Positions 24,333 to 52,520 of a stretch of DNA of 52,520 nucleotides are shown here, piece after piece. A model generated the notes under the pieces. It was not told where the DNA came from. It did not search any database and saw nothing but the letters and a program-made list of their open reading frames with translations. The stretch covers positions 40,928 to 93,447 of the forward strand of contig MU271320.1 of the NCBI GenBank assembly GCA_021432655.1. Direction: 5' to 3'. The position numbers and the translations under genes were made by a program. The stretch is from Atractiella rhizophila (lineage: Eukaryota). Every line of letters begins with the position of its first letter. Within the stretch, counting starts at the first letter, position 1.

Positions 24333-26383
24333 CTTGTAATTCTGCTGCTTGGCTCGGAGAGAAGGAAGAGAGGGAGGGGATGTGGAATCTGTGGCCTCTG
24401 TTAGCTTTTAAGACTAGATGTCGGGCTATGAAGACATACGATCGAAGACGACGCTTCTCTGCACTCGCTACTATCCTGTCAATGTATGAACCGGACTGGC
24501 CAAGCAAGCTCGCTTGTACTACACAACTCCCATACTCCATCGGGGAGCCTGAGGCTGTAATCCACTTCATCGCAACGGCAAGCAACTACTTCTGAAGGGA
24601 GTTTGTCGTCCTATAGTATTGCAAGCGCGTCCGGAAACTCTTTCACGAGTACAGTGTTTATTTTTGACTTTGCCCAGACAGGGCATGCAGAACCGATGAT
24701 GTCCTGATTACTGTCAGTTGAATATTCGCTCCTGAGCCGTTACTGCCACTGTTCACGGAGACAGATCTTGAAGCTAGATGTGAAGTCGCAATTGACATAT
24801 CGTTTAGTTCTACAAATACTGTTTACCTCCTCGCTCTAATCAATTGCGAAAAAGCGGTTTAAAAATAGTCACACGGGAGCAGGAAGGTAACACTTTTCAC
24901 AATTCACTGCCGACCTGATTTTGCTTTCTTCGAGGGCGACTCATTCCATAGAGAGAAAGAGAAGACTCTAGATAACCTCATACCTAGTAAACTATCACAC
25001 CAAGGAGGAGTTGTCCTTTACCTGGCTTCACGCAGGTCAACTATACCGTGAACAGCACATATCCGCGGTGCAATTTTACAAAATCCGCGCTGACAGTGGA
25101 TGAACCTCGCTAAGGGCAAGCAGACCGAAAGCGGCATGAGAGTACGATCACGGGTATGATGGTATGGATCGGAGCCACCGTAAGAGTGACTGGAGGGATG
25201 TGCCTCAAGGCCATGCATGACTTTGGCGTAGCACGACTTTGCGGCGTTACAAGTGAAACCAAAGGATTTTGGGCCACCAAAACGGAGACAAAACCGAGAA
25301 AAGGGGAGGGAGACCGCCAAATTTTTCCAGTCAGCTGTCAGCCTCGGTGGAGGCGGAAGCCTTTTAAGAGAGTGAGAACGAAGACGGACCATTAATTGTC
25401 TCTGTTTTCGGCCCACGAAGCTTCTCTCCTCTTTTGTTCCTTCACAAGGTGCGACTGCTCGAAGCGATCAAATGGCATACTTGCAGCGCGTTGAAACATC
25501 AAATTGATGAGAAGTCTTCGCTAACAACACACTGGCTACCACATGAATTCCTGAACTTGAACAGTGTACTTTCGGACTAAGACCAGGTGCTGTAGTCGGC
25601 TCAGAGTTTAGGACTGCTGAGAATCAAATCTTCAGTTTCAGACGTGGTCTCGTAGTGTTTTGCCCTCGATAAGGGTTGTGACTTCAGCAATGTCAAAAAC
25701 AATCATGAAGTCACGAACGTCGGCTTGAACATGTCAACGGTGCATATAGAAAGCATATCGAAGAACATGACTACAGTCCTCTTGAAATGTTATCCGTCGA
25801 TAACAGCCGCATGTTCAACTGGTGAGGAGCCTGGGTGACAGCGTGTCATCAACTACAGTGATTCCAATCATTACATCCATTTCGGATATCTTTCAACGTT
25901 GGAGTATCTCGGAGCATCATGATTCCCATTTGCGAATGACAATAAGATACAAGATTGACAACATGTTTAATTCTGGGGCATTTTTTGTAGGTCTAGCCAG
26001 CATAAACAGCTGGCGGTGAATCTGCACCAGCAACAGGACAGGGAAGTGTTTACTAGTAGCTAGTACTAGTAGCATTTGAGCAGAGCGGAAGACTCAAGGA
26101 CCTGTTTTTGATACCTCGACTTCCCTTCTCTCCTACTGTATCCTCTGTGCGACGCATACACCGGAAAGCCAACTCTCTCATCCCTGTCTCATCCAATATC
26201 CACCCCATGCAGGCCTGGCCTCATAATCGTCGCACCAAGATCAAATTGGCAAGTTCTTACAGCAGGGGCGAAGAAGGGAAGTAGAGGGCATCAAAGCGCA
26301 TCAACACACCCTCGAAACGCGTAACATCCATCCTCACCAACACGCTGCCTGCAGAGGCATAGGCATATACACTAATAATAAGG

Positions 26384-29300: not shown

Positions 29301-32300
29301 ATTCGAGGGAAGTGTTTGAGAAGAGTTTAGAGGTCGTGCAGAAAACTGTGCGTTCTCTTAGCCGCTCTCTTGTTTGACAACGCTGACACATGAGCAGATC
29401 GACAAGCTCAATCTTGAGGGATACTCGAACCTCGAGAGCTGGACAAAGACTTTGGACGAAAAGATCGAGCGAGTGTTCATTGAACGCCTCAAATCCATTC
29501 TCGAGCTATGGTCTGCACAGTTCTTGAAGGACGGATCGAAGGAGCGAGAGGGAGCGCATGCGGCCGGTCGGAAAGCGGTAGAGAAGAAAGAGTCTAAGAA
29601 GGATGGGGCGCTGGAGCTCAAGCCTATCGTTCATGAAGTCTGCATCAAGAACCAAGTCATCTACCTCGACCCTCCCATCGAATTTGCTCGAGCCCAATGG
29701 TATGGTCAGCTTCAGGATTGGTTGGGCGTCATTTGTGGATTGAAGAGGATACAAAGCTCGAGGTATGAACTGGGATTGAAGTTCAAGAGCAGACCAGAGG
29801 ACGAGAACTATGTCTCAGTCGTACGTGTTCCGCCTTCTCCATGATTGTGCTCACAGCATTGGTAGCTTGGGAAATTCGACGAGGCCACTCTCTCCAAGCC
29901 TTTTTCTATGATTGAAGACAAGCTGAGCCAGATTTCCGCTTATGTCAAGAAGTGGCTTCAGTTCCAGTCGCTTTGGGATCTCGAGAGCGAATACGTGTAC
30001 AACCTCATCGGCGACTCACTCGTCCAATGGCAACAACTCCTTTCCGAAATCCGCAAGACTCGTTCCACCTTCGACAATTCGGAAACCCAGAAATCTTTTG
30101 GCGTCGCCGTCATCGATTACGAGCAGGTGCAGAGCAAAGTCAACGCTAAATATGACACCTGGCAGCGCGATATCTTGGGTCGATTCGGGACAAAACTCGG
30201 TAGCTCGATGAGGGAGACTCATGCAGCGATTCTCAAGGCTAGACATGATTTGGAACATCAGAGCGTGGAAGGATCTTCGACTGCTCAGGCCGTTTCGTTC
30301 ATCACCTTCGTGCAAGACTTGAAGAGGAAGGTGAAGAAGTGGGCTCCTGAAATCGAGATCTTTGCGAGTGGCCAAAAGACGCTCGAGCGCCAGAGATATC
30401 AGTTCGCTACGGATTGGCTTTATGTCGATCAAATTGAAGGCGAATGGGGGGCGTTCAATGAGATCTTGATGAGAAAGAATGCTGCTATCCAGGAGCAACT
30501 CGCTGGTTTACAGATGAAGATTGTCGCTGAGGATCAGATTGTAGCGAAGAGGATTGGGGAGATTGTGGGAGAGTGGGATCAGAACAAACCAATCCAAGGA
30601 AGTCTCTCGGCTGCCAATGCGATGAACATCATCAATGTCTTCGAGGACCGAGTTACGAGGCTTAAAGAAGAATACGACATGGTCACTCGTGCGAAGGAAG
30701 CTCTCTCCCTCGAACTCGTCCATGATGAACGCCTCCAACCCGTTCTCGAGGAGATCAGTGACCTTAAGGCGGTCTGGACAGCTCTGTCAGGGGTTTGGGC
30801 GCAGATCGGAGAACTCAGAGAGACAAGTTGGGCGTCCATTCAACCTAGGAAACTAAGACAGCAAATCGACGGACTGCTTGCCTCAACGAAAGAGATGCCA
30901 GCCCGGATGCGACAGTATGCTGCTTACGAGTTTGTTCAGGATTCTTTGAAGGCTTACCTCAAATCCAACATTCTCATATCCGAATTGAAGAGCGAGGCGT
31001 TGCGGGAACGACACTGGAGACAGCTCTACAAGAACCTGAAGGTCGCTAGCCAATATATACCGTCTCAAATGACGTTAGGATCAGTTTGGGATCTCGATCT
31101 GAAGAAGAATGAAGGAGCTATTAAGGAAGTGATTATGCAAGCTCAAGGTGAAATGGCGTTGGAGGAATATCTGAAGCAGGTATGTCACCAGCATTCGTTC
31201 GTTTCGTATGGCCAACCATGCATTCCAGGTCAAGGAAATTTGGACGAACTATAGCCTCGAATTAGTCAACTACCAGACGAAGACCAAGCTGATCAAGGGC
31301 TGGGATGACCTTTTTGCCAAGTGTAGCGAGAATCTAAACTCACTTACGGCCATGAAGATGTCGCCATACTACAAAGTGTTCGAGGAGGAAGCTTCGTCTT
31401 GGGAGGAGAAACTAAACCGCATTCATGTTCTGTTTGACGTTTGGATCGATGTGCAGAGACAATGGGTCTATCTTGAGTGCGTTTATTGATTGATTTGTAC
31501 GGTGCCAGACCAAGTGACGCTGTCTCAGGGGAATCTTTTCTGGGAGCGCCGACATCAAGCATCTCCTTCCCGTCGAGAGTCAACGCTTCAATACTATCAA
31601 TGCGGAGTTCATGTCCGTCATGAAGAAAGTTGTCAAGTCACCTTTCGTCCTCGAAGTGCTTCAGATTGCCGGCGTACAGAAGAGCTTGGAGCGCCTTGCT
31701 GATCTCCTTAGTAAGATCCAAAAAGCTCTCGGAGAGTACTTGGAACGAGAGCGCTCACTTTTCCCACGGTTTTATTTTGTCGGAGACGAAGATTTGCTCG
31801 AGATCATCGGTAACAGCAAAGACGTGGTAAGGGTCATGAAGCACCTCAAGAAGATGTTCGCAGGGATCTCTTCTCTCATCCTGGACAACGTCGAAGACGT
31901 CACTCAAATTGAAGGCATCTCATCCCGTGAAGGAGAAGAAGTTCACTTTACCGCTCCAATCGTCCTCAAAGACTTCCCAAAGATCAATGACTGGTTAACC
32001 AAACTCGAACTCGAGATGAAAGTCGCCCTTGCTGATCTTCTTCAACAGAGCAGGGGCGAATTGACACCCATTTACACAGCCACAGATCGCCTCGACCCAG
32101 AGTCCTTCTTAGAATGGGTTGGCAAATACCCTGCTCAATTAGTGGTCCTTGCTATCCAGGTGGAATGGACATCCCTAACAGAGCAAGCGTTGGAAGAACA
32201 GTCTGGATTGAAGAAGCCTATCGACATTGTCCTTCGAAGCTTGGACGTGCTCGCCGACGCCGTTTTGACAGATCTAGAGCCCATCAAGAGGAAGAAGTGC

Positions 32301-35300
32301 GAACACCTCATCACGGAGTTGGTGCATCAAAGGGATGTCCTGAGAGATATTGAGAAAGCAGACCTCTCCATGGGCAAAAACAGCTTCGCCTGGCTTTACC
32401 ACATGAGGTTCTATCACGATCCCACGATTTCCAATTCTCTTGATCGCCTCACTGTTCGCATGGCCAACGCTGTCTTCCCATACGGCTATGAATACCTTGG
32501 AGTCCCGGAAAAACTTGTCCAGACGCCGCTGACGGATCGCTGCTATCTTACCATGACGCAGGCTCTGGATCAACGACTTGGTGGTTCACCTTTCGGTCCA
32601 GCGGGAACAGGTTTGCACTCTTTTCTAGCTCGTTATGATGTTGCTGACATTTTCTATAGGTAAAACGGAGTCCATCAAAGCTTTGGGGGTGCAACTAGGC
32701 CGTTTCGTCATAGTATTCTGCTGTGACGATACTTTTGACTATCAAGCAATGGGACGTATCTTAGTGGGATTGTGCAAGACTGGACATTGGAGTTGTTTTG
32801 ACGAGGTACGCAGCTGAACAGCAACCGAACGATGGCTGATCCACGGAGCAGGTCAATCGACTGAGCGAAGGCACTCTCAGCGCCGTCTCCCAGCAAATTG
32901 CGGACATAACATCTGCGCAAAGAGCCCGTACAAACCCGACAAGCAGCGCCATTGTTCAGCTTGCTGGAAAGGAAGTAGACGTCAAATCGGAAACCGCTAT
33001 CTTTGTTACCTGTCAGTGGATTTTCTTTACCCGGAGGTTTTGTTGACCAGACTCACAGATAATCCCGGTTACGCAGGACGTTCTAATCTCCCCGACAACC
33101 TGAAGAAGCTTTTCAGGAGCATGGCTATGACCCATCCAGATCGTGAACTCATTGCTCAAGTCATGTTGTTCTCTCAAGGATTCAGAACCGCCGAGAGACT
33201 TGCGTCCAAAGTAGTGCCTTTCTTCAACCTCTGTTCCGAACAGCTGTCGAGTCAGCCGCACTATGACTTTGGTCTTCGAGCCCTCAAGGCTGTCCTCACG
33301 AGTGCTGGACAACTGAAGCGAGAGCGCATCGCTAATCCAACAGATGCTTCCCTCGCGACGTCTAACGATATTGTAGAGCAGGAAATTGTAATCCAGAGTG
33401 TCACGGACACCATTGTCCCAAAATTGGTGGCGGATGATGTCCCTCTCCTTACCAGGTTAGTTACACCTGACTTGGACTCATTACCAATCTCACGAGAGTT
33501 GCAGCTTACTTTCAGATGTATTCCCTGGTATTGATTATCGACCTGTCGATCTAGAGAAACTTATCCAACACATTTCTGACGTTTGCAATCAGCAGCATCT
33601 TCAAATGGGCGAGATTTGGTTGCACAAAGTTCTACAGCTTTATCAGATTCAGAATATCCAGCACGGGTTGATGATGGTTGGTCCAGCTTCGACAGGAAAG
33701 AGCAAATCTTGGAGCGTACTTCTCCAAGCCATGGAAAGACTTACTGGTGTTGAAGGTGTTTCTTACGTTATTGACCCCAAGGCGATTTCCAAAGATGCCC
33801 TCTATGGGACCCTTGACCCCACCACGAGGGAATGGACTGACGGACTCTTTACAAGTATTCTTCGCAAGATCATCGATAACGTCCGAGGAGAGAGTTCTAA
33901 GCGACACTGGATTATCTTCGATGGTGATGTTGATCCAGAGTGGGTGGAAAATCTCAACAGGTAAGCAACATTTTAGATTTTTGACAGGTCTCATAACGAC
34001 TGGTTCCAGTGTTCTTGACGATAACAAACTCTTGACACTTCCGAATGGTGAACGCCTCAGCTTACCCCCGAACGTGCGCATTATGTTCGAAGTCGAAACG
34101 TTGAAATACGCGACTCTCGCGACGGTCAGCCGCTGCGGCATGGTGTGGTTCAGTGACGACGCTGTTACCCCCAGCATGATGTATCGCCATTATTTCTCTA
34201 ACCTCCGGAAAGTCGCCATCGATGCAGCAGATGATGAGCTGACCGCTGAAGGACTTGGACGTGTCGCAGAAGGTGAAGACAACCATTTAGCTACTCAATC
34301 ATCAATCGCCACCATCTTGGAGCAACACTTTCAGGAAGATCAGCTGGTGCCGAGAGCTTTACAGTATGCCGCAACCGTGGATCACATCATGGAATTCACT
34401 GCCAGTCGAGCACTCACTACGCTCTTCTCCCTCCTGAACAAGACCGTTCGAAACGTTCTTGAGTACAACACGACACATCCTGACTTCCCTCTGCAACTCG
34501 AACAGATCGAGTCTTATGTCCAGAAACGACTTTTGGTCTCCATAGTCTGGTCATTCACCGGAGATTCCAAGTTGGATACAAGGATGGGGATGGGTTCTTT
34601 CCTCAGAGAGAACTGCGGTTTAGATTTCCCTCCACTTGGGCCGGGTGCCTCCTTAATCGATTACGACGTTCAAGTTTCCAATAGCGACTGGATTTCGTGG
34701 CAGAATTCGGTACCTACGATCGAAATCGAAACCCATTCTGTCACAGCACCTGACGTGGTGATTCCTACTCTCGACACAGTTCGACATGAAGATGTTCTTT
34801 ACGCCTGGCTCTCCGAGCACAAGCCATTGATGCTTTGCGGTCCTCCCGGTTCAGGAAAGACTATGACATTGTTCAGCGCTCTACGAAAACTTCCAGACAT
34901 GCAGGTCATTGGACTCAACTTTTCCAGTGCCACCACGCCGGAGCTCGTTCTCAAGACATTCGAGCAGCATTGTGAATACAGAAAGACCCCCAATGGAGTT
35001 ATTCTGTCTCCATCTCAAGTCGGTCGCTGGATTGTCATTTTCTGTGACGAGATCAATCTCCCTGCAACTGATAAATACGGCACTCAGCGCGTTATTTCAT
35101 TCATTCGTCAGCTTGTCGAACAGAATGGATACTGGCGAACGTCGGATAGAGCTTGGGTCAAACTTGAACGCATCCAATTTGTTGGAGCTTGCAATCCTCC
35201 TACAGATCCTGGCCGAGTGCCTCTCACCCAACGATTCCTGCGACATGCTCCGCTTGTCATGGTTGACTACCCTGGAGAAGCCTCCCTCATTCAGATATAT

Positions 35301-38300
35301 GGTACATTCGCAAGAGCGTTGCTCAAAGTCATTCCAACCCTTCGGGGCTACGCGGAGCCTCTCACTGCTGCCATGGTGGAGTTCTACCTCGCCTCTCAAC
35401 GGAAATTCACCGCTGATATTCAAGCCCATTATGTCTACAGCCCCCGAGAGCTATCGCGCTGGGTCAGAGGTGTCTTCGAGTCCATTCGCCCCCTAGAAAC
35501 CTTGTCGGTCGAGGGTTTGGTTCGTGTATGGGCGCATGAGGGACTTCGTCTGTTTCATGACAGGTTGGTGGACGAAGAAGAGCGAGTTTGGACCGTCGAC
35601 ATGATTGACGCCACTGCCCTCAAACACTTCTCTACCATAGAGAGAGACGAAGCTCTTGCCAGGCCAATTCTGTTTTCCAACTGGACCTCCAAATTTTATG
35701 TTTCTGTCGACAGAGAGGAGCTTCGAGAGTTTGTTAAGGCCCGACTAAAGGTGTTCTATGAAGAGGAACTCGATGTCCAACTTGTACTTTTCAACGATGT
35801 ACTGGACCACGTCCTCAGAATTGATCGAGCCTTCAGGCAGGTGCAAGGGCACATGCTCCTTATTGGCGTCAGTGGTAGTGGAAAGGTATGTGTCTCCCAG
35901 TCAGATGACAGAATTAATGTAACGTCCCCAGACAACACTATCTCGGTTCGTTGCTTGGATGAACGGTCTCAGCGTTTTCCAAATAAAGGTCCACAATAAG
36001 TACACGGGAGATGATTTCGATGAAGATCTTCGAACTGTTTTACGACGAGCCGGGTGCAAAGGAGAGAAGATTTGCTTCATTATGGACGAGTCCAATGTTC
36101 TGGATTCTGGATTCCTGGAGCGAATGAATACTCTCCTCGCCAACGCTGAGGTCCCTGGTCTATTCGAAGGTGACGAATATGCTGCTCTCATGACCAGTTG
36201 TCGAGAAGGAGCTCAGAAGGACGGATTGATGCTGGATACACCCGATGAGCTGTACCGATGGTTTACGACTCAGGTTGCCAAGAATCTTCACGTCGTGTTT
36301 ACTATGAACCCTCCAGAGAGCGGATTGGCATCAAGAGCTGCTACTTCGCCAGCCCTTTTCAACCGTTGCGTCTTAGACTGGTTTGGAGACTGGTCAGATC
36401 AAGCATTCTATCAGGTTGGAGCCGAGTTCACGCAGACGCTCGACCTGGATATCGCTGGCTACGCTCCGCCCATCAACTTCCCTATTGCTTACAGGCAGCT
36501 TGAGCTCCCACCCGTCCATCGAACTGCCGTCGTCAACGGTCTCGTGGCTGTTCATCAATCCATGTATGAGACGAATACCAGGTTGAGCAGGCGTCAGGGT
36601 CGCTTCAACTATGCTACTCCTCGACATTATCTCGATTTCATCAAACATTATGTCCGTTTGTTCAACGAGAAGCGCGACGATCTTGAAGAACAGCAGCGAC
36701 ACTTAAACGTTGGACTGGACAAGTTGAAATCTACTGTGCTTCAGGTAGAAGAGCTGAGAGGTAGTTTAGCAGTCAAGAGAAACCAGCTGGAAGCGAAAAA
36801 TGCGGAGGCGGATCAGAAACTTCAAAGGATGCTTATAGACCAGCAGGAAGCCGAGCAGAACAAAAAAGCCTCGGAGGAAATTCAGGTTGCTCTGAAGCAG
36901 CAGCAGAAAGAAATCGCAGAACGTCGAGCTGTTGTACTAGCTGATCTCGCGAACGCGGAACCTGCCGTTGTCGAAGCACAGCAAGCGGTGAGGGACATCA
37001 GAAGGCAACATATACAGGAAGTTCGAGCCATGGCCAACCCTCCAGAAGCGGTGAAGAATGCCATGGAATCTGTTTGCATCATCCTAGGAAACAAGATCGA
37101 AGGATGGAAGTCTGTCCAATCGATTCTGAGGCGAGACGACTTTACTGCTACGATTGTTAGTTTCGACACCTCCGCCAAGATGACTAAAAGCCTGCGTGAT
37201 AAAATCAAGCACGACTACCTATCAAATCCCAACTTCAATTTTGAGACAGTCAACCGTGCTAGTCGAGCTTGCGGTCCTCTTGTCAAATGGGTGATTGCTC
37301 AAGTTGGCTACTCTGAAATCCTTGATCGCGTGGGCCCTCTGCGTCAAGAGGTGCAATCGCTGGAGGACCAAGCCAATGGCACAAAACAAAAGGCCTCTCA
37401 CATCATTACAATGATCAAGGATCTTGAGGCCAGCATCGCGCGTTATAAGGACGAATATGCCGCCTTAGTTCGAGAAACCGAGGCCATCAAGCAAGAAATG
37501 GAAAGAGTGCAGACAAAGGTGGACCGAAGCATCACTCTTCTTGACAGTTTAGGATCCGAGAAGTCGCGTTGGGAAGGCGGGAGTCGAACATTCGAAGCAC
37601 AAATGGCCACTATTCCGGGAGACGCTCTTCTCTCCGCTGCATTCCTGGCATACGCGGGTTTCTTCGACCAACAGTACCGAGAGAATATGTGGGCTAGCTG
37701 GGCGAATCATCTCACTGATGCAGGGATTAAATTTAAAGCAGAGCTCTCGTTACCTGAATACCTGTCCACTGCAGACGATCGTCTCGGCTGGCAAGCGAAA
37801 TCCCTCCCAGTTGACGACCTTTGTACGGAAAATGCTATCATGCTCAAGCGCTTCGATCGTTACCCACTGATCATCGATCCATCCGGCCAAGCCACCACCT
37901 TCGTAATGAACGAGTACAAGCAGAGGAAGATCGCTGTCACCAGCTTCTTGGACGACGCATTCCTTAAAACGTTGGAAAGTGCTCTGCGTTTTGGAACGCC
38001 ACTGCTCATACAAGATGTGGAGCACCTTGACCCAATCTTGAACGCCGTGCTGAACAAGGAAATCCGCAGAGCAGGTGGCCGAGTCCTCATTCGCTTAGGC
38101 AGTCAAGATATTGACTTTTCTCCATCATTCATGATGTTCCTCTCCACCAGGGACCCATCCGTCAACTTCTCTCCAGATATATGTTCACGAGTGACCTTTG
38201 TCAACTTCACCATGACCCGTGGCAGTCTACAAAGTCAGTGCCTAAATGAAGTTCTCAAAGTCGAACGACCAGATACGGATAAGAAGCGAACAGATCTTAT

Positions 38301-41300
38301 GAAGCTGCAGGGCGAATTCCATCTCCGACTCAGGCACCTTGAAAAGCTGCTCCTTCAAGCATTGAACGAATCATCTGGCAACATCCTAGATGACGACAAA
38401 GTCATCGACACCCTGGAAACTCTGAAAAAGGAGGCTGCGGAAGTCAGTCGGAAAGTAGAGGAAACTGACTTAGTCATGGCAGAAGTTGAACAAGTGACTT
38501 CAGTCTACCTTCCTTTGGCACAAGCTTGCAGCAGCATCTTCTTCGTGCTAGATCAATTGGCACTTTTGCACCACTTTTACCAGTTCTCTCTTGGCTTCTT
38601 CCTGGACATATTCAGCTTTGTCTTACATCGAAACCCAGGCCTCAAAGGAGTCACAGATCCCAATCAACGTCTTTCCATCCTCAAGCGTGACATCTACCTT
38701 CAGACTTTTAAGCGGACGGCGCGGGCTCTCCTGCACACAGATCATCTCGTTTTGGGAATGTTGTTAGCACAAGTCAAACTTCGTAGCGAGCACGGATCCT
38801 TCAACGAGACAGAATTTGGATATCTTCTGGATTCAATCAGAGCTGCTGCTTCGTCTGACAAACCTGCTCCGGGTGCCTTGAATACGGACCAAGCGGAAAA
38901 GGTCAACTCTTTGGCGGAGCTGCTCCCATTTAAGGAACTACGTCAGCAGTTAGGGGCGGATCCGGAGAAGTGGAAGACGTTCTTTGATTCAGAAACACCA
39001 GAGACGGTTGTTCCAATTACTTGGGAAGATTTAGATGGTACGTGTCATCGGTAGTCGAGCTACTTGGCTGATAGTCGCTGCAGTCGTAGGAGTCAGCTTA
39101 AGAGAAGCGCTCTTGATGAAATACCTGCGACCGGATCGTCTCCTGCAAGCAGCTGATCGGTTCGTGCAAACTGCGTTTGGCCAAGACATCTCTGCAGAAG
39201 CCGCGTTCGACCTTGAGGAAGTTGTTACTCAAGAAGTTAAAGCCACGCAACCTATCTCTTTGGCATCGGTTCCTGGGTACGATGCTAGTTATAAAGTCGA
39301 CAATATCACAGTCTCTGTCGGAGCGAGATGTGCCTCTATTGCGATGGGTACCGCTGAAGCGACATCACAAGCTGATCAGGCGATAGCAGCTGCAGCACGA
39401 ATGGGTAGCTGGGTCCTGTTGAAGAATGTTCATCTCGCTGTGTCTTGGCTCGGTCAGTTGGAGAAGAGGCTTCAGAGCATGCAGGCGAATCCCAACTTCC
39501 GCCTTTTCCTCACGATGGAAACAAATCCGTCTATTCCGGTCAACATTCTTCGTCGCTCTTGTGTTGTGATGAACGAGCCGCCGCCGGGCATTCGAGCTAA
39601 TATGGTGGACTCTCTTCAGTCGATTCCAAGTGGACGTCTATCTTCCGGTCCGGCGGAGAAAGCAAGACTCTACTTCTTGCTTGCCTGGCTGCATGCTGTC
39701 TTGCAAGAAAGAATGCGATACGTACCCTTGGGCTGGAGCAAGGCCTATGAATTCAACAATTCAGATCAGGAGTCGACGCTCAATACCATCGACAAGTGGG
39801 TAGATACGGCAGCTCGGGGCAAATCGAATCTAGCACCGGAGGCAATACCTTTCCCTGCCATCAGAAGTCTTATCAAAGAAGGTGCGCTTGAGACACTTGA
39901 ACTGCTAATATTGTGGCTAAATCATCCTCATCAGCCGTCTATGGAGGACGAATCGATCGTGCAGTGGATCAAGCTCTGTTAGACGGTGTGTCGTCTCCTT
40001 CCATCTCCGCAGTGTAAGCTGAATTATTTTGTAGCCTTTGTTGACCATTTATTCCAACCCGGAGCTTTCGAGAATAATTTCAAGCTTGTCAGGGATACTG
40101 ATCTTGCAGCGCCGGAAGGAAGAACGCTAGCTGACTTTTTATCTTTCGCGAGAAACCTCCCAGAGCGAGAACCTCCTTCTTGGCTCTCTCTTCCCGTCAC
40201 CGCCCCTGCTGTCATATCAACCGGTCAAGGTAAGTAGTTCTCGGAGCTCTCATCCGTTGCTCAAAGTAGTGCAGGTCGCGATATGTTGCAGAAAGTTCTG
40301 AGGATGCGCAGTCTCGATGACGACGATGGTGCGGCTGGAAGTACCACCAAGACGGCAAGCACACAACCTGCCTGGATGCGCCAAGTGGAATCCGATTGCA
40401 AGAAATGGCTGGACATTCTCCCCAAGGTGAGGGATGATATCTTCGTGATTTTCTTTCTGATATATTATGGCAATAGGGAGTTCCAACCATGACCTTTTCA
40501 GACATCCATGACCCTCTAGCTCGTTTCTTCGTGAGGGAGTTGCAAACTGCCAAGAAGATTCTTGGACGCATCAGGAAAGATCTCGACGACCTCATACTAG
40601 TTTGCGAGGGGGAGCTTAAGCAAACCAACGATCTCAGAGAATTGCTGTCCAATGTCAACAAAGGTTTGTCCGCACATTGCCAAGGCATCGATCAAGCTGC
40701 TGAGCTACGCTGTAGGAATTGTACCCAATCACTTCCGTCCGTTCAAGATCCAAAGTCTTCCTCTCAGCGACTTCATCAACGACTTCGTATCTCGCCTTCA
40801 ACAGTTGGTCATGTTGTCAGAGACTGGCATCGAGGCGGATATCTGTCTCGGGAAGCTGTTCTTTCCACAATCGTACATCACAGCTACTCGTCAAAAGATC
40901 GCTCGGCAGACGAAGGTCTCGCTAGAGACGTTGAAGCTTGAACTCGACCTGGAATCATCCCAGCCATCAGTTGGCTTCCGTGTAGCAGGTGAGACGATTT
41001 GTTTCCGTCGAAATACGCGCTGACCGTTAATCTTACAGGCTTGTCTCTAGAAGGAGCGGTATGGAACGGTTCAAATTTGGAGATGAACAATGGAGACATG
41101 ATCCCATTGAAACCGTCTCAGCTGAGGTGGGTTGAGGGCAAACGTGGCGAAAGTGACGAGCGAGCTGTAAGTGATACTGCTGGGTACAAAGTACTTTTTT
41201 GACTGATGCAGCAGGCTGTTCCGGTGTACCTGGATCCTACTCGCTCCGAGCTACTTTTTGTAGCAAGATTACCAGTAACGAAAGGGGCAGAGAGTTTGAT

Positions 41301-42543: not shown

Positions 42544-43035
42544 GTTTCTGCCCCAGATTCAGGCATAACTCAAGGCAGCCTCTGGCTTATAATGACGAAT
42601 TTCAACAACGGCCTTCGGATACGGAAATAGAGGCGAAAGACTAGGACTACATGGATTCAGAGCGCTCTGCTACAGGGAAGAAGAGCTGCGACCGATGCCC
42701 ATTGTAAACTAAACAAAACTGGAACCTGCAAAGGTAGGGACTGGCCGAAGGAGCATCAAGGATTTTGATGGCGACGGAGTATCAGAGGCGAGAATACGGA
42801 GAGCAAGACTCAGAGTTTGTAGAGTGACTGACAATTTACAAACTCCCAAGTCCAAACAGGATCGCTAAACAATAATTTCTCACCGCTCAATTTCCTTTTT
42901 TACGGAATATAATGTCACCCGTATTTTGACATTCCTTCTCTCTCTGTGCCAGTGCTCTTTAGCAATCCAGACATTATTTTGTGGTACTGCAACGTTGACT
43001 GACCCCTTGACTGTATAAATAAATGGATGAAGTTA

Positions 43036-43144
43036 GACCAAATTTTCGCCCGCTACGTCGAATGTTTCGGCTGTTACGTCCGAATTTTGGTCCAAAATGC
43101 AGCCGTAACTACGGGGACGGCTGTAGTCACAGCTGTAGTCAGCC
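43036..43144. repeat. Nested direct and inverted repeat cluster, candidate transposon left (sub)terminus
   Basis: GACCAAA...TTTGGTC inverted pair enclosing two copies of TTTCGnCnGnTACGTC(C)GAAT, then a CAGCCGT/ACGGCTG inverted pair and GCTGTAGTCA twice. Confidence 0.6.
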
Positions 43145-43858
43145 ATCGAGCTGAGATCAATCATCTAAGAGAATCTGGCAGTGGAGGAACATGCGTCGCA
43201 ACATATGGCATCAAATGTATGTCTTCTATTACTTCTTTCCCTTCCCTCTCGTTGTAGCGCACACCCATCGAAATCCATAATAATTACCTTCGTCTTTGCC
43301 AGGATCCAAAGACAGCGCCGTCCTCACTGACTGGAGCAACTCTCGTACAAGCTAACATCTTCCATTTTTGCCAGTGTCCGCGTCCTTCGACCCACTCTGT
43401 GATTCCTCACTCCGCTTGCTCGCCATTCTGTTCGCCCTTCTGTCCTCCACCACATTCCTGTCCTGCTGTTATGGTTCCGGTTTGGCTCTCCTCTCTTGCG
43501 CCACAGTTCAACTCTCTTTCCTTTCTCCCCGGCTCAAATTGCTCCGAAACTGTTCGGATTGGGACATCGATTGATCCTTTGTCCTGCTCGCAAAGTGATC
43601 CATGTTCTCCATAACCAACTGGCATACTCCACGAGCTCCGAACTGAACATCACGGCACTCGTACACAGCAGAGCAAAAGAGGAGGACACCGAATGGTATA
43701 TCTCATCCTTTCTACTAATGCTGATATTGTGTGCCTGACCTTGTTATCTGACCTTATTTCCTTCCTGATTCAGATGTCGGTGACAGGGCAAGTGTTCTTG
43801 AGATCAGCCAGCCCAAACTTCCCGAAATATCTTATTGTCACACGGTCATCAGAATACA

Positions 43859-44203
43859 GCATTCGATATTGAAGACCTTCTTTACGGTTTTAAAGCTTTG
43901 ACATTGAATCGAATTTCTAGTCCCAACAGTTGGCGACAGGCGGCAACGTCCTCGAGATCCGGTGCGTGAGGTGTAAGACCATTCACCAAGTCACCACTAA
44001 TCAGATTTGTGCTACAGTGACCGTGGCTGAAGTCTTAGAGTTTCAGCTTCAGAAGATGGCCGACCCCAAACCTGCCTCCACCTCTTCAGGTTCTATGTTA
44101 CCAAATGAATTTCTCTGTCCAACCATGCTGGTACGTTTCCTCTTCGCCTAGCTTCAGTTGCACTTATTGAGCGCATGCTCAGCAAGGGATAGCTGATTGC
44201 TGA
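43859..44203 (+). CDS. Small spliced orphan ORF (partial model; 5' exons unresolved)
   Basis: FDIEDLLYGFKALTLN...SSRS joins in frame, via a GTGCGT...CTAAT...ACAG intron (43962-44017), to VTVAEVLEFQLQKMADP...PTML. Another intron then leads to QGIADC*. Confidence 0.3.
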
Positions 44204-44521
44204 TTAAATATACGCTAACGTTCGTCCTCCTCATTTCAAATAAATAGCAAGCCTGATGTCACAATGTAGCTCACTGACTGTTTTGTGCAATGATCATTAC
44301 GCTTCCAATCAGCCTACCTCTTGCTCGCGCACATTTTCCACCTTGTGAGAACATTGTGGAACTTGACTACATTGAGCTTCACAGCTTAATTAAGTTGGAG
44401 CTGTTGTGGTGAATGAGTGAAACACTCACTGTTCCAGAAGCAATGATGCCAATCACATTGACACATATATGGCTTGGTTCTCTCCCAAGCTGTACTTTTC
44501 TCCCATTCAGCGTGCGCTATT

Positions 44522-47500
44522 ATGTCCCTCAGATCTTTAGAAACTTTCATTACTAAACGGAATGTTCAACAGCATGACATTCCCAATACAACGCCAACTG
44601 TTGAATTACCAAACCACTCTACATTCCCATCAGCTCGCCTTTTTGCCACCAGACCAAGCAGCTTGTTCAACTCCTCTACGGTCCGCGATCCAGCAGCTTC
44701 TGCACAGGAATCGAATAAACCAAGGCACTCGTTACTTGACCGCCTATTCGCTAGAGTTCAAACAAAAAGTCCACCTCAACCTTTAGACCTCAACACGCTC
44801 TCTGCTGTTCGCACGAATTCCTTCCTCTCGCGGCTTGAAGCTCTTACTCGACAACAGCCAAAGATGTCTCGGCCGCTTTTAATCAAGGATGTCCTTTCGT
44901 CAGAGGAGGTATTAAACTCCACCTCTTTCTTCGCAGATTACCTTCATCTTTCCGAGGCACAAATGGAGGAAGTTGATGCACTTTGGAGGAGAATGCTCCG
45001 TGGAGAAGTGGGATACCGTCGCTTTGATAGATATACGTTTGTTATTCAAGCCACCGAAAAACGCCAAACTGAAAAGGCAAGATCCTTCCACTTAATAGTG
45101 CATCATGCTGCTTAACAGATGTTTACTCAGGCTCGTTGCAATTATTTCCAAATCAAAGTTGGGTACAATTCCTTTCCGGAGGACCTTCTCAGTCAGTGCA
45201 CTATTGACACCCAACGTTTTGCAGCCGCCTGCAATTGCCTCGAATATGGTCGCAATGCAAGTGGATCTCATTACTGCCCTCATGTCGGTGTGGTCGTGAA
45301 GTATATCTTTGACGCAACGGGGGGAGAGGACCCTCCAACATTTCATGGTCTGTATTTTCTTCTTTATCGCTACGGTCAAGGCTCAGTTTTACGCATAGCT
45401 GAAACCCCACGCATTCGATTTGTTCATTATCAGCTCGAACCTCCTATGCTCACCTTTGCTATGCGCCGTGCTTTAGATAGCACGAAGAATGTTTCCGGAA
45501 AGCTTTGTTTCGTTTCCGGTTTAGGACCTGGATTGTGGAGGTGCAGCAGCTGTTCTGGAGCCAACTTTGCACGATGTCCGCACATTCAGCCTGCCATCCA
45601 GCTCACTTCTAGATTTCTTGTTGAAGATGAACAAAAGGACGAAGTTTATCAGCTAGCTGACTTGGTTCTTAGCTCTCCCGGAACGTTTGATGCGACAGAT
45701 ACGAAGGGATTTCACTTTGACATTTCCTCCACGATCGAGGCCCCCCGATCCTGCCGGCGCCTCCCAGCCAGCGTTTCTCTGACCAGAATCCCTCCAGCTC
45801 CTTGGATTGCTTTGCCAGAAGACACTAACAAGTACCCGCGGCCAGAATTTTTCACTCCGACTTTGCTGCCCAGCCACTTTCCATATGACAGTGATGGTTG
45901 CTGTTGTGTTGACAGTTGTCGAGCAAGAGGCAGCGATTTGCCTTTTTTATCCGCTCTTTCTCAAACTGAGTTATCCGAAGCAATTTTATTTACCACATTA
46001 GGAGCTCGCAAAGTCACAATTGGAACAAGACGCTGTGTATCCAAGAATTGCACGAAAGGCAGCATAGGACCAGATCAGGTTGCTTATTGCATTCTGAATT
46101 ACAATAACAAATTCTTATTCACTCACGAACTTCTAGTTTCATTCCTTCTTGCCTCTCGCCAATCTATGACGATTAATGGCGAGTACTGGAAAATGCAGAG
46201 CATCTACAAAAACCATGCGTCGCCTTTTGACCTTCCCAGTTTTCCGGTCATTCTTGCAGCCTACTATCGCTACTTGGACCTCCTTGATTTTAACGAACGC
46301 TTTCATTGTCCACTCTGTCCAAACGATAGCTATAAGGTCGTGGGAGGCGATGGCAAAATGTCTGGTTCCTACAAAGATCTATTCACAGCTGAACTTCAAC
46401 CACCGAGCAAACCAAATCCAGACTTTCCAGATTACACCAGGCTACCACCAACTAACATTCGCATCTGTTTACCTTGGATTTCTCTGTCGAATCACCTGAA
46501 AGCACTATTAGGAAAAGAAGCTGCTCAACTTCGAATTCCCATCAAAGCTGAAGACTGGAAATCTTTAGCTAATGCACTTCTCGACAGCTTGAAGCAGAGG
46601 AAGGCATCCACTTTAAACCTGCCTGTTATCACACTACCTTGCCTTGATTCCCGCCTCGTCCAAGCCATAGCTCCTAGGGTTAGGAAGGTAGAGAAGATGC
46701 AGGACGTGTCAGAAGGAGCAAGACAAACCAAGACACGGAGTACAAAACAAGATCTCATTTACGATCAGGATCAGAACAATCCTGAAGATGCAGACCGTTT
46801 GTCATTCGGACAAATCAAGGGTCCAGACATGGACTCCCTGTGGCTTGCTCTTCATGGGTTGACAGCAATGGCAATTATCATGTCAATGGACCCTACAATT
46901 GATGGCACGATTTTTGTGAACCCAGTTCGTGCATTCCAAGCCAAACTTCGCATCCTTCTTGAAATCCTGACCTCTCCCGATTGGATCACACAAGTGGTCG
47001 CCGATGATCTATTACCTTGTCTGCAGGCTCTCACTAACGAACAACTGCAAGACCCAACATTGTCTAGCAAAAAAAGCTGGCTATTAATACTCCGGATCAA
47101 GCAACAGTTTCCATCTTACGGCGATATTCTAGAACACGCGAAGCTAGCTGAAGAGGCTACGATCAAGAAGAGCATTCCAGCCTTTGCGTCTTTGGCTGCT
47201 TTTTTTGTTTCCAGGCTTCAATCTTTTCAAAATTATCTTGAGAATTGCAAGGATGACCAGACCCGAAGATTTCCTCGCCTCCCTCAGCTTTTACCTTGCT
47301 CTACCACACAAACTTCAGTAGTTGGACCGCTATATGAGCCGGATGGACCTGATGGACCTTACCACACTCAACTTTTTGAGACAGCCCAGCCTAATCCAAT
47401 CTACAGTGGATACGAGTACTTTTTGCCTAAAATTCGTGAACGCCCTTTCTATGCCAACTTTATCAACGATGGTCAGCAAGATTCTCCCAGCGACAACTTA

Positions 47501-48046
47501 GGAGCAGGTTGTCCATCTAAAGAGTTTGACAAGGAAACCAAAAAGAAGCGAGATAGGACTGGCGGTGTCTTCATCTTATGGTGCTTGCTCCACGGTTTCT
47601 GCCTAGGATTTCATCTTATCCCCAACCATGAGGGAAGAAATGACTTTTTCTCTGTTCTGTTCTGCCATTTCCTCATCGCTCCCGACATCATCGTCTACGA
47701 TTATGCGTGTCAGCTGCATCGGTATTGCATGGCCAGGGAGTATCAATTTTTTCGGAAGAGTCTTTTTTTAACCGATGAGCTCCATGGAATCAACCACGTT
47801 TCCTGCTCCGCTGCGACATTGCTAGCTCATTACATGGCCACTAATCCATCATATTATGCTATACGCAGCTCTCTCTGTGAGGTAGGAAACTTGACTGTCA
47901 AAAAGATCGAAAAATCTCTGTCTTTCATGCATCAAGAACAAGCCAATCGCTATCTTCGCATTCATCTCTTGATTCACAATCGAATTTTATTACTTCGTTC
48001 TCGTGGAGCCAGTCACTTCCCACCTGCGACTGGTCTAGGATCATGA
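44522..48046 (+). CDS. KDZ-superfamily DDE transposase (SWIM fingers, CxC4-like cluster, KDZ RNase H-like core; HMGXB3-related type), about 1160 aa
   Basis: SWIM-like CNC..CPH and CSSC..CPH; CxC4-like C..C..IGPD..LNYNNKFLFTHELL; CPLC..VVGGDG; TGGVFILWC.HGFCLGFH.IP..EGRNDFFS; IIVYDYACQLHRYCMARE; TDELHGINHVSC; SSLCEVGN. The upstream ORF is joined by a predicted GC-AG intron at 45077-45118. Confidence 0.88.
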
Positions 48047-48138
48047 TGTATTACGATGTAAATTTACATTCTGATCAATGAATACGATGTACAAATCAAG
48101 AGAAGAAGAAATATAAGAACATGTACTGCCGTAAGTAA

Positions 48139-49197
48139 TCAGGGCGATTCCTGACTAGAGCCTGGCGCGTCAGGACCGGTGCGCAATTGATCTTGGTTCA
48201 TAACAACCTGTATCAACCTCAGTACTAGGTATGGTCTAGAAGAAAGGAAGTTACTCACTTCCTCCCAATTTGTAAGCTTAGCTCGCATCGCACTACTGGC
48301 TGCTACCGCTTCATCTGCATTTTTAGCCCAATATGCAGACGCTTTCTGAGCGACATAACCTTTGATAAGGTTCTTGAACATTGGGAACTCCTCATCCGAA
48401 GTGAACACAGAGGAAGCTGTGATGGTAATGGCATTTTGTACGATTTCGCGTAGTTCAGCGTCTGTTAGCACCCTGGCATCACGAAGAGCAGGAGGAGGAT
48501 CGGCGCTGGGAATGTAACAATTTACGTGAGTATAGGTTTGGGCTTAAAGAGAGGAGAGGACTTACGGAAATGCAACAACCAGCATATTCCCATTTGACGT
48601 ATGCTCATACTTGGGCAACTGAAATCAAACATTCTTAGTGTAAACATCAAAATGAAGGAGTATAGTCCACACCTTACTCTGCAAGCTTGCCATTGTACGG
48701 TTGAAAGAGCGATCTCTTTCTCCAGGAGTTGAGAATGGTTGTTCTCTTTTTCTCTTGCGTGGAGTCGATGCCGGAGATGCGGGTGGTGTCACAGCAGAAC
48801 CAGAGGAAAGAAATGGATCGATGAGATTATTTTCCCATTTAATGACAGCAAGACGAGATGGAGAGACATAGTCTGCGTCGTAAGGATCTTCTCCAGCTTC
48901 TAATCGCACTATTACTGCCTTCAGATCGTTGCGAAATCTTTCCGCCCCAGAACAATTGTGATGGCGGCCCTTCTCTAAAACACCCAGGTAGACCCAACAA
49001 GCAGAGCATTTGTAAGTCGCTTCGAATGCTTGGGCTTGGAGGAAGGGAATAGGAGGTTCTACTCGGTTCGTATAGGCTGGAAGGAGGTGTTGCCATTGTT
49101 TTGCTAGCATAGTGAGTTTGACAGACTCAATCTGCTGTAGATTTGGATAAGCTGCCCCTATAGCTTGCCCTGGCAGAGTGGTGGAGGAGGACGGCAT
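48139..49197 (-). CDS. Orphan putative nuclear protein with CxxC...H..C zinc-ligand motif and NLS-like PRKRKR (4 exons)
   Basis: Exons join in frame through GT-AG introns (...LQSK|LPKYEH...VAFP|ADPPP...VLTDAELRE...NWEE|VVMNQ...). The motif is YKCSACWVYLGVLEKGRHHNC. Confidence 0.65.
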
Positions 49198-49506
49198 ATC
49201 AAATGATTATACAAGACGTGCAAGAAGTGAAGCCTCAGTGTAAGAAGCTAGAAGTCAAACTGTCAGAATAAGTCATTATCAGGAGAGAATAACGTACAAG
49301 TTGCCAAAACAACGTTACACCACACAGCTAATTGAAGGTAGGGGAATCTTGGGGTAGTTGGCTTTGTTGGTAGCAGGGAGCAATTCTGCGGGAAGGGTTG
49401 CGGATCCGAAGTTGCAAAATAGGGGAAAAGATCATAATCTACCGCTCTAATCCTGCCGATATAAAAGACATCTGATCTTTATATTTCGCTTTACAGGATC
49501 CCTGTC

Positions 49507-50905
49507 ATGGCTGTCCCATTCGATATTCGCAAACATGACATTTCATCCACATTAGGGAGTACCATTTTTTTCAGCTACGAGAAAGAAGATGGAAACACTT
49601 TCATCTGCCGCAGGAAGGTTACAGGATACGAATCGTATAGCAAGGTCGCGGATCTGGAGCGGGTAACTGTTAGGACATGGGACGGTTCACGGAATCTTTG
49701 GCGTGTTCTTGTCGGCAAAAGAGTTGATTATTGCCTCCACGAATTCTTCGACGATTGCGACGCCCACATCAACGACGGTTGCAGAGCAAGAAAGCATTAC
49801 AAGTCTGATCGTCATCGTGCCACGGACTGGGTGGAGGAAGGGAATCAAGGGAGGCAGCATCTTCTTCCTCTACTCCCTGAGGTGAAGAAAGCAAGGAATA
49901 CTGCTGCTAAAAGAGAGTGCGTTTAATGTCTCCTGTAATAAAACGCGTACTCAATATGTATATTTTAACAGATCTCGGGCACGACAAAAGAACAACTGCA
50001 AAAAAATCGAAGACGATGTCTACGCTTCAGATGAAGACGAAGGAGGTGATTTTGCCGGCCCTCTTCCCTCTGCCATTCTTGCGCGCCAGATCTTTGATTC
50101 GGAGGAGAAACTGCAAGGCAACCAGCTCTGCCAGCTCCTCAATTCTTTTCGTAGCGACAGGAAGGCATTCGAGATAATTGCCACTAAGGCGGTCATCGAC
50201 TTTGAACCTCCTGAAGGACGTCATCGGTGGCTCCTCCTCCTTTTATTCAGAACGATCTTTTCCCCTCTGTATCAATATGTTCCAATCTCACCTCTCTCCC
50301 CTCTTCTACGTTATCCTTGGGAAGGGGGTCATGCGATTGACACAGAAAGAATGGCAGAGGACTTAGCCGTCAGCCTGCATTTTGACAAGGATAAGAAGGA
50401 GAGATTGGAGGAAGTAAAAGAGGAGCTAGATGACATGGAATATCGCTGGTTTACGGATATTCTCGATAGCAATGCGGTCCTGATCCGCAAGATGCAACGT
50501 TCATGGATGGCGTGGAACTTCCTGCTTCACCTAGATCCGCTTTCCGACTTCCCCAACGATCTTGGTCTTACTACCAGAAACACGACGGCTCTTTACGAAT
50601 CCATCTCCCAACGTGCCCCTCCTCCTCTTATCCCCCGCATCACGTCATCCAACGATCTCCAGCTCACCACGAAAGCTGAAGCTCTCCTTGCATCTCAACC
50701 GCAGCGAAATGGAGCGGTCCGGAGGAGGAACGTCACCTTACCAAAAAGGAGGAAACCGGTAAATCAACCGCATAGTCCAAAGTGTCAGTCCCCCTCCACC
50801 TCCTCATTATCCGATCTAACCGATAGCAATCCAACCTTGGCTCCTACAAAAGTATTGAGCAAGCTGCGACCAAAGGCCCATCGCATAGCAGCAGGTCACG
50901 TCTAA
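49507..50905 (+). CDS. Orphan protein with a C2H2-like zinc motif and a GCN4-like basic region lacking a zipper (about 448 aa, 2 exons)
   Basis: The intron at 49917-49971 (GTGCGT...AACAG) joins the 49507 ORF to a frame that stays open through the 50351..50905 ORF, creating KKARNTAAKRESRARQKNNCKKIEDDV. Confidence 0.7.
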
Positions 50906-51369
50906 CTGTACGAAGCAGAGGAAGGTAAGGCATTATTTATATTATTTTAGAACTTGGTAATCGTTCATATTCCTTCTCTTTCTGCGTTTATTCTCGTTTA
51001 TGTCATCTTGTCGATATGTCTTGGTCCTACACATTACACTTTCCGCTTATGGGCTTCCGCAAGGATGGAATAGTGTAGTCAGGGTATTTCACTTCTTATT
51101 ACTTGAACACATCTTGGTACATGTTGAAATAATGATCGCTCATTTTATTAATTGCAGACATAGAAGACATGACAAATCAAAATACAATAGAGAAAGATGT
51201 GATAACAGGTTCAACAAGAAAGACAGAAAGGGAAGCGAACATCAACAGGCTGGAGTACATGACCATCTGAAGGTCTGTAAGTTATAAATTTCAACATCCA
51301 ATGAGTGGGACAAAAGCTTTGTCATGAGGTTTGAGTAAGTGGATGAAACTGTCACAGGAAGAGACAACG

Positions 51370-51511
51370 GTGCTGAAAGTAGAAGACAAAACACAACGTC
51401 TTTGAGATTGGAAACACAAATCGAGTGACAAAGGAATGGTGTGCTGAAAGTAGAAGACAAAACACAACGTCTTTGAGATTGGAAACACAAATCGAGTGAC
51501 AAAAGAATGGT
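51370..51511. repeat. Tandem duplication, 2 x 71 bp with one mismatch
   Basis: The unit GTGCTGAAAGTAGAAGACAAAACACAACG...GACAAARGAATGGT starts at 51370 and again at 51441. Confidence 0.95.
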
Positions 51512-51674
51512 CTCCCACATCGAGGTCAAAAACACAGAGACAACAGAAAAAGGATGGAAGTTCGAAAGACAGAAGTAAAGGGAACGTCACAAACAAGGTA
51601 GGCAGTCCCCCTAAAAGGCAATGCAATCAAATCAGGCAGATAGTCTATTGTCAAAGGTCACCACTTATCCCATC

Positions 51675-52441
51675 CTAGCGCAAAATAGGCGTCTTGGGCG
51701 GCAGAGGTAGATCGTCCTTGACAGAGAAATGCCCACGCAATACCTTTGCGTTCTTGGGGATCGAAGGTGGCCAAATCGATTCGGCTGTGCGGTTGGCCAC
51801 GAGCCATGGTAGATGATCCTCCATCTGGACAGGCCAAAAACAGTCCCCCGGACTAAGCGAACAATCAGCAACATTGTCAAGTAGCAAAGACGGGAAGGAA
51901 GTGCCTACCCGAGGAGTCGGAGCAAGATGTAGCGGCTTTCCACAAAATCGACAATCTTGTGACAGGAATAGCTGAGCTTGGAGAGAGCTGGGCATAGGAG
52001 GAACAGAGCTTGACCTATTTGGATTCGGCGCGGCTCGTTGGAGAAACATCGGGGCACTTGGACACTGAGGGACGGTAGGTAACGGTCCTGGTGAAGAATG
52101 GAGAAGCGATGTGGGCAACCCTTTTTCCATATCAGGCCCAATGTATTAAAGTATGAGTAAAACATACCCGTCGCACGAGCATCCAATTCGCTCAACACTA
52201 TCACTTTTCCCACCTTTTTCTTCCTAGCCAAGGGACTGCCTCGATTAGTAACATTTGAGGCAGACAAGGATCTGCGCAGCTCGATCGTTGGGAATGGAGA
52301 GGCTGAAGCAGAAGAAGAGGCAGGGCAGTATGACCGTTGTGAGCGCAAAGACCGTTTCTCCACTTGTCGCAGTAGAGCCTCTCGACGTTGTCGAAGCTCC
52401 GAACGGGAGGGGGTAGAAGGGGGACTATTCAGTGTAACCAT
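51675..52441 (-). CDS. Orphan Ser/Pro-rich basic protein with CRFC...H...C motif (2 exons; start may lie further upstream)
   Basis: The intron at 52121-52167 (GTATGT...CTGAT...AAG) joins ...LDARATG to LPTSLL... in frame. Contains RKKK and DCRFCGKPLH. Confidence 0.55.
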
Positions 52442-52520
52442 GTCCTTGGGCTTGATCAATATGTTGGGCCTGGTCCTGGGTGAATGAATGTTGGAATGTT
52501 GATGTTGCTTGTGATTCTGA

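Follow-up and report, generated by a model that had tools for sequence, protein, structure and literature searches.

A transcribed orphan gene with a zipper-less, Gcn4-like basic stretch beside a KDZ-type transposase reading frame of Atractiella rhizophila

Introduction

How can a stretch that resembles the basic region of yeast Gcn4 come to lie inside an orphan fungal protein, split by an intron and with no leucine zipper behind it? Is it a remnant of a bZIP gene, a working basic helix, or just a Lys/Arg-rich sequence that happens to look like one? The question is raised by a gene near one end of a 52,520-nt stretch of an A. rhizophila contig, which was analysed as a whole and is called the window here. 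The window is fungal in its content: it carries genes for acetyl-CoA carboxylase, dynein heavy chain, ribosomal proteins and a sulfotransferase, and those for acetyl-CoA carboxylase (1441-8135, forward strand) and dynein heavy chain (26363-41000, forward strand) are ordinary host genes with many introns. The answer matters in either direction. If the stretch is derived from a bZIP gene and binds DNA, it would be a rare fungal basic region that works without a zipper; if it arose by chance, the gene is an ordinary transposon-linked orphan, and it warns how closely the bZIP signature can be imitated by a short basic stretch.

The gene and its transcripts

The gene that contains the stretch consists of three exons and starts with the ATG at 49507, and its spliced coding sequence (49507-49916, 49972-50783 and 50853-50905) encodes 424 amino acids. 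The translation computed from it is identical at every letter to that of NCBI KAH8923514.1, a hypothetical protein of Atractiella rhizophila, which is called P0001 below. The parts of the gene are as follows.

49507..49916, forward strand: exon 1, encoding residues 1-136 and two bases of the E137 codon, with K127-R136 from 49885; a contig of run X4 spans 49434-49916
49885..50020, forward strand: basic stretch, codons K127-V153 (KKARNTAAKRE, then SRARQKNNCKKIEDDV), split by intron 1
49917..49971, forward strand: intron 1, 55 nt, GT..AG, phase 2, within the basic stretch; joint 49916>49972 in X4 and X3
49972..50783, forward strand: exon 2, with the second half of the basic stretch (V153 at 50020), an acidic, Gly/Pro-containing tract without a zipper, and a helix-rich middle part
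50784..50852, forward strand: intron 2, 69 nt, GT..AG, in frame and stop-free; joint 50783>50853 in X4 and X1
50853..50905, forward strand: coding part of exon 3 with the stop codon; the transcript contig extends to at least 51300

The basic stretch comes into being at the first splice. It opens with the first base of the K127 codon, at 49885, and closes with the last base of the V153 codon, at 50020. On the unspliced DNA, the reading frame that runs from 49465 leads to PEVKKARNTAAKRECV and then to a stop, and if intron 1 is retained the frame stops after ...KRECV. Removal of the 55 nt between the donor GTGCGT at 49917 and the acceptor AACAG ending at 49971 joins GA and A into the codon of Glu137, after which the protein continues with SRARQKNNCKKIEDDV. 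Is this junction, across which the original prediction had the basic region created, really used? The contigs of four public runs were compared with the window over positions 48000-51300, and the junction 49917-49971 was found spliced in transcript contigs of two of them. A 1842-nt contig of run X4 carries both joints, 49916>49972 and 50783>50853, each with GT..AG ends; the former is also present in a 239-nt contig of run X3, which bears a different study code from X4, and the latter in a 182-nt contig of run X1. These three runs are unrecorded as RNA and are taken as RNA-like because their contigs skip GT..AG introns. No alternative splice form of the gene was seen in the contigs of these runs, a kind of material in which rare variants are lost. 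The P0001 gene is real, expressed and correctly spliced.

Two further points concern the same transcripts. Intron 2 of the gene had been overlooked in the original prediction. At position 50479, run X1 has G where the window has C; this is a third codon position and the change is synonymous (GTC to GTG), and the G may come from another copy or strain.

Likeness to Gcn4

The likeness to yeast Gcn4 had been put at 15 identical residues out of 27, and the same count came back from the alignment of a PDB search. When the whole P0001 was compared with PDB sequences by phmmer, four GCN4 bZIP chains were obtained with E values of 0.15-0.17 (13.8-13.9 bits), together with a fifth GCN4 match, to a 29-residue peptide, at E 5.5. 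The chains align to residues 126-153 of P0001 without a gap. In this alignment the invariant Asn and Arg correspond to N131 and R139, and the N-x7-R claimed for the stretch is retained; likewise, the Lys that had been placed at the specificity position equivalent to A239 is K135. It should be added that an unrelated helicase stands slightly ahead of GCN4 in the whole-protein search (E 0.054), and thus the GCN4 match alone is not significant. With an 86-aa segment as query, which was picked after the fact, all six PDB matches at E<=10 are bZIP domains: five are forms of GCN4 (E 0.017, the best, to 1.1) and one is another bZIP protein (E 0.35).

Which class of bZIP proteins is closest? In pairwise comparison with a reference set of 192 fungal bZIP proteins (Table S1 of PMC10877997, where cells of more than 400 characters are shortened), yeast GCN4 came out at the top with E 5.5e-4, and eight Gcn4/CpcA-type proteins took ranks 1, 2, 3, 6, 10, 15, 17 and 38 of the 182 scored; since these eight are mutual orthologues, their ranks amount to one observation, not eight. 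The general signature of basic regions, N-x7-R/K in a Lys/Arg-rich stretch, is present with N131 and R139, and the residues of the Gcn4/CpcA pattern found in P0001 127-153 are N131, A134, S138, R139 and R141. Four of the five base-contact positions of Gcn4 are kept, as N131, A134, S138 and R139. As to the exceptions, K135 stands where Gcn4 has Ala239, and E137 where Gcn4 has a basic residue (Arg241).

The strict contact motif N..A...SR.R begins at residue 131. It appears in 0.08% of shuffled P0001 sequences, and it has no other occurrence in the 105,036 residues of the six-frame translation of the window. A relaxed bZIP-type motif has two chance occurrences among the same 105,036 residues.

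Tests of family membership

Is P0001 then a bZIP protein? A profile search of the spliced protein with bZIP_1 and bZIP_2, the check that had been proposed for the bZIP assignment, went against it: neither family is listed by Pfam for the whole P0001 or for the 86-aa segment at a maximum E of 10, in a search whose HMMER filters discard most matches above about E 0.1. A PROSITE-type basic-region pattern has no match in P0001 and fits only when its second [SAQ] position, where K135 stands, is freed. From a language-model feature search of residues 118-160, no bZIP cluster was obtained.

A graded measure is given by a home-made bZIP profile of 133 basic-plus-zipper segments, which were cut from the same set of 192 fungal proteins by a simple rule and of which at least two rows are out of register and were kept. 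Over the full domain this profile gives P0001 9.7 bits (E 4.6e-5 for one sequence), with residues 127-148 lying on the basic region. One of 5000 shuffles of the whole protein reached 9.7 bits, and none of 5000 did so when the 45 residues 116-160 were shuffled in place. Without its two Gcn4-type rows the profile still gives 7.7 bits, a value reached by 0 of 5000 shuffles. Among the 746 six-frame ORFs of the window, exon 1 of P0001 scores 6.4 bits and the best other ORF 3.6 bits. How do true basic regions behave in the same test? With their zippers removed and under ten-fold hold-out, they have a median of 32.7 bits and a 5th percentile of 17.9, and two of the 133 score 9.7 bits or less. By these scores, the bZIP likeness of the basic stretch goes far beyond what its composition would give and falls far short of that of true members, and P0001 is not, by the tests run, a member of the bZIP family. 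It is to be kept in mind that the failed family tests weaken the statement that P0001 is a bZIP more than the statement that its stretch works like a basic region.

Could chance or convergence be enough? The stretch would then be an ordinary Lys/Arg/Ala-rich sequence resembling a nuclear signal, in a transposon-linked gene that is young, evolves fast or arose de novo, with no bZIP ancestry and possibly with no selected function. No family threshold is reached, homologues and a confident fold are lacking as described below, relaxed motifs turn up twice in the six-frame residues of the window, and the feature came from a scan over very many windows, all of which fit such an origin. Moreover, a probability of about 5e-5 to 2e-4 per protein means that about one chance match of this kind is expected per fungal proteome. 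What speaks against chance is that the order of the residues beats all 5000 shuffles of the same 45 residues, that the strict motif is as rare as stated above, both in shuffles and in the window, that every PDB match of the 86-aa segment is a bZIP domain, and that the 424-codon frame is open across two introns and transcribed. The likeness is beyond chance in the targeted tests; at the scale of a proteome or of the whole scan it is not. We take chance or convergence as a serious explanation, to be given a little less than an even chance.

Zipper, upstream cysteines and histidines, and fold

That no leucine zipper follows the basic stretch was borne out by counting heptads from I149. S156, D163 and S170 stand at the Leu positions, E160 and P167 at the a positions that come after V153, and past the single zipper-like heptad (I149, V153) there are two glycines at 161-162 and a proline at 167.

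The zinc-finger-like motif said to lie upstream was not supported. The Cys and His residues named for it exist (C34, C76, H78, H97 and H103), and the candidate ligands in P0001 comprise C34, C76, H78, C84, H87, C92, H97 and H103; the spacing of a C2H2 finger, a finger family in Pfam and a confident fold did not come with them. C2H2 and matrin-type fingers are spaced as C-x2-4-C ... H-x3-5-H, and from C34 to C76 there are 42 residues. Pfam gave no zinc-finger family, either for exon 1 at E<=1 or for the whole P0001 at E<=10.

Predicted structures are of low confidence. AlphaFold2 on the single sequence gave a mean pLDDT of 39.5, too low for a fold search, with residues 1-167 below 50, and the Atlas model of P0001 has a pLDDT of 0.36. 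Atlas searches with P0001 gave nothing above chance level and indicated no family; OrsD (PF12013), which has an Atlas score of 0.75, was tried as a family and set aside, having no Pfam backing. With neither a recognisable domain nor a confident fold found by Pfam, AlphaFold2 or Atlas, P0001 is probably a largely non-globular protein.

Can a basic helix without a zipper read DNA by itself? The original prediction offered a monomeric binder in the style of SKN-1, in which the basic helix alone would read a Gcn4-type half-site and be steadied by a flanking N-terminal domain. The base contacts of Gcn4 kept at four of five positions agree with this, and so does the fact that the basic stretch is the sole part of P0001 with PDB matches, those being bZIP domains. 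Isolated bZIP basic regions bind DNA weakly, which is a general point against such a binder, and K135 and E137 in place of the Ala and Arg of Gcn4 are particular ones. There is a precedent in nematode SKN-1, which, according to PMC3488259, has no zipper and binds DNA as a monomer. However, the PDB matches at E<=10 include no SKN-1 or CNC chain, no Pfam domain lies upstream of the stretch, and residues 1-125 have no confident fold. The support helices and N-terminal arm of SKN-1/CNC proteins were likewise not seen by sequence (PDB at E<=10 and Pfam, with the model of residues 1-167 below pLDDT 50). An SKN-1-like reading is possible, with nothing in P0001 to support it beyond the missing zipper, and we regard the monomeric binder as unlikely.

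Relatives of P0001

Where else does such a protein occur? When residues 1-175 were searched against 5.8 billion proteins, P0001 itself was all that came back among proteins of 233-742 aa, and exon 2 against 5.8 billion clustered proteins found the gene's own protein only. A HMMER search of exon 2 against 1.84 billion representatives gave the gene itself and one repeat protein, P0002. The latter, a bacterial-type repeat protein of 702 aa from an unknown source, matches residues 327-372 of P0001 (window 50540-50677) in six stretches at E 5e-6; it was rejected as a relative, since repeats inflate a likeness over 45 residues and the match was judged spurious. The P0001 sequence concerned, LSDFPNDLGLTT...SNDLQLTTKA (327-372), resembles about one and a third repeat units of P0002 (LSDFNNDLGLATVA...). 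A metagenome scan with 171 pattern matches contained no relative of P0001, and there is no paralogue of it within the window. As far as the databases reach, P0001 is restricted to Atractiella rhizophila. The sole other copy is identical across the basic stretch, and therefore there is no sign of selection on N131 or R139.

The repeated gene pair and the KDZ neighbourhood

That other copy, P0004, lies on another contig, falls into the same cluster as P0001 and differs from it at one of 424 residues, namely residue 423. It is to be considered together with what lies upstream of the P0001 gene in the window.

44462..48046, forward strand: KDZ-type transposase reading frames, 44462-45115 (217 codons) and 45116-48046 (976 codons)
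48110..49247, reverse strand: divergent orphan neighbour, encoding P0006 of 297 aa; spliced, the introns being 48206-48256 and 48619-48672, with one more joint at 49248-49297

P0006 contains a PRKRKRE stretch and a C-x2-C...HH-x-C cluster, has no Pfam family, and showed no relatives elsewhere in a near-length search. Three copies of this neighbour gene are found on three contigs, encoding P0006, P0003 and P0005, which differ from one another at 1-2 of 297 residues. The accession numbers of P0004 and P0003 stand next to each other, and likewise those of P0006 and P0001; thus the gene pair is repeated as a pair. The P0001 gene and its neighbour exist in at least two near-identical copies, and the neighbour in three, and the three contigs may include two that are allelic. 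This repeated unit of the P0001 gene and a divergent orphan neighbour is new here.

Next to the pair is the KDZ-type sequence. The frames of 217 and 976 codons are in different reading frames and are probably joined by an intron. The longer ORF, 45116-48046, contains a CxC4 cluster matched at E 9.7e-15, and its match to the catalytic KDZ family is weak, at E 0.0055 and under the curated cut-off. From its end to the neighbour gene there are 64 bp, tail to tail, and between it and the P0001 gene there is just the 297-aa neighbour gene.

Is the P0001 gene, then, carried by a transposon, as had been suggested? The link held as far as the KDZ ORF at 64 bp from the neighbour and the repetition of the gene pair are concerned, and did not extend to the ends of an element, which are undefined in the window. 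A search for terminal repeats or target duplications around the unit was negative within the window, which ends at 52520; when 42559-44600 was compared with 50906-52520, no convincing inverted repeat appeared either, the best having 17 nt with mismatches. As described in PMC12730594, Kyakuja elements have CA..TG ends, lack terminal inverted repeats and make target duplications of 7 bp, those of Zisupton and Dileera elements being 8 bp long. Downstream of the P0001 gene, at 51370-51511, there are two tandem 71-nt units that are 99% alike; they lie beyond 51300, where the comparison with transcript contigs stopped.

Base composition at third codon positions adds a weak hint. GC3 is 0.508 for the P0001 gene, 0.434 for the KDZ ORF and 0.394 for the neighbour gene; three host ORFs of the window are at 0.52-0.54 and a fourth, for dynein, is at 0.668. 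The P0001 gene is thus nearer to these four host ORFs than to either of the other two members of the unit, which counts somewhat against its being KDZ cargo, and the parts of the unit may differ in history.

Such a difference would suit the other origin put forward in the original prediction, the capture of a fragment of a host Gcn4/CpcA-class gene, together with its intron, by a transposon that fused it into a new frame. The likeness of the stretch is indeed greatest to this class, the P0001 gene lies within a KDZ-linked repeated unit, and its GC3 is on the side of the four host ORFs (0.52-0.67). It is also reported, in PMC12730594, that KDZ and other fungal DNA transposons take up passenger or host-type genes, for example TET/JBP. 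How old would a capture have to be? The stretch is identical to the class at only about 55% of 27 residues, whereas protein differences among the copies of the unit amount to 0.2-0.7%, so any capture must be much older than the present copies. Further against it, the likeness stops past one heptad, the top match is from yeast and not from a basidiomycete, and the search with residues 1-175, in which 298 word-sharing candidates of 233-742 aa were compared, gave no A. rhizophila bZIP at E<=10. We consider capture of this kind improbable. Descent of the basic stretch from a Gcn4/CpcA-class bZIP gene, taken as a statement by itself, is something that we would neither assert nor dismiss, with the balance somewhat on the negative side.

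Origin and role of the gene

Which reading brings these observations together best? We lean slightly to the one in which the P0001 gene belongs, as cargo or as an accessory gene, to a young mobile or duplicated unit linked to KDZ, and encodes a largely non-globular protein, probably nuclear, whose basic helix is bZIP-like and lacks a zipper. The compact unit would be made up of the KDZ transposase ORF, the gene for P0006 and the P0001 gene, of which the last two at least are repeated elsewhere. In the protein, residues 127-153 would form a basic, helix-like stretch that may serve both in nuclear targeting and in nucleic-acid binding. The sequence KK-x10-RARQK at residues 127-143, read by eye, fits the classical bipartite nuclear signal pattern, and there is PKRRKP at residues 394-399. 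Judging from the acidic Gly/Pro tract after the first heptad, dimerisation through a zipper is not to be expected, and if a TGA(C/G)-type half-site is read in a sequence-specific manner, help would be needed from elsewhere in the protein or from a partner. It is from such features that we infer nuclear location, DNA binding and mobility of the unit.

A bolder role can be imagined, in which P0001 is an undescribed KDZ accessory DNA-binding protein whose zipper-less, Gcn4-like helix reads sequences near the element ends or rewires host Gcn4/CpcA-type sites. We hold this to be very unlikely. If it is true, P0001 would be the counterpart of the Myb-like protein of Harbinger or of TnpA of En/Spm, built from a bZIP fragment. 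More generally, if the helix is derived from a bZIP gene and binds DNA, no earlier DNA-binding accessory protein would be linked to a KDZ transposon, and P0001 would provide a handle on how the poorly known KDZ elements locate their ends or affect host regulation. A limited literature search found no published case of a transposon accessory protein with a bZIP.

Comparison with known systems

With which known systems can the P0001 gene be compared? To the Gcn4/CpcA class (PF00170, PF07716) it is linked by an ungapped likeness of 27 residues, which runs from the basic region through the hinge to the first heptad. Unlike in that class, the stretch of P0001 occupies residues 127-153 of 424 instead of the C-terminus, and neither a leucine zipper nor a Pfam match goes with it. 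SKN-1 of C. elegans, as presented in PMC3488259, shares with P0001 a bZIP-type basic stretch without a zipper; P0001 differs from it in having no sequence likeness at E<=10 and no recognisable upstream support domain, and in that its stretch is internal, with 270 further residues after it. The third comparison is with the passenger genes of KDZ (Kyakuja-Dileera-Zisupton) and other DNA transposons. Like those described in PMC12730594, the P0001 gene is a non-transposase gene, is packed beside a KDZ ORF and is repeated, whereas the TET/JBP genes and the Myb/SANT protein of Harbinger/Nuwa treated there are set apart from it by their domains, P0001 having neither a TET/JBP nor a Myb/SANT domain.
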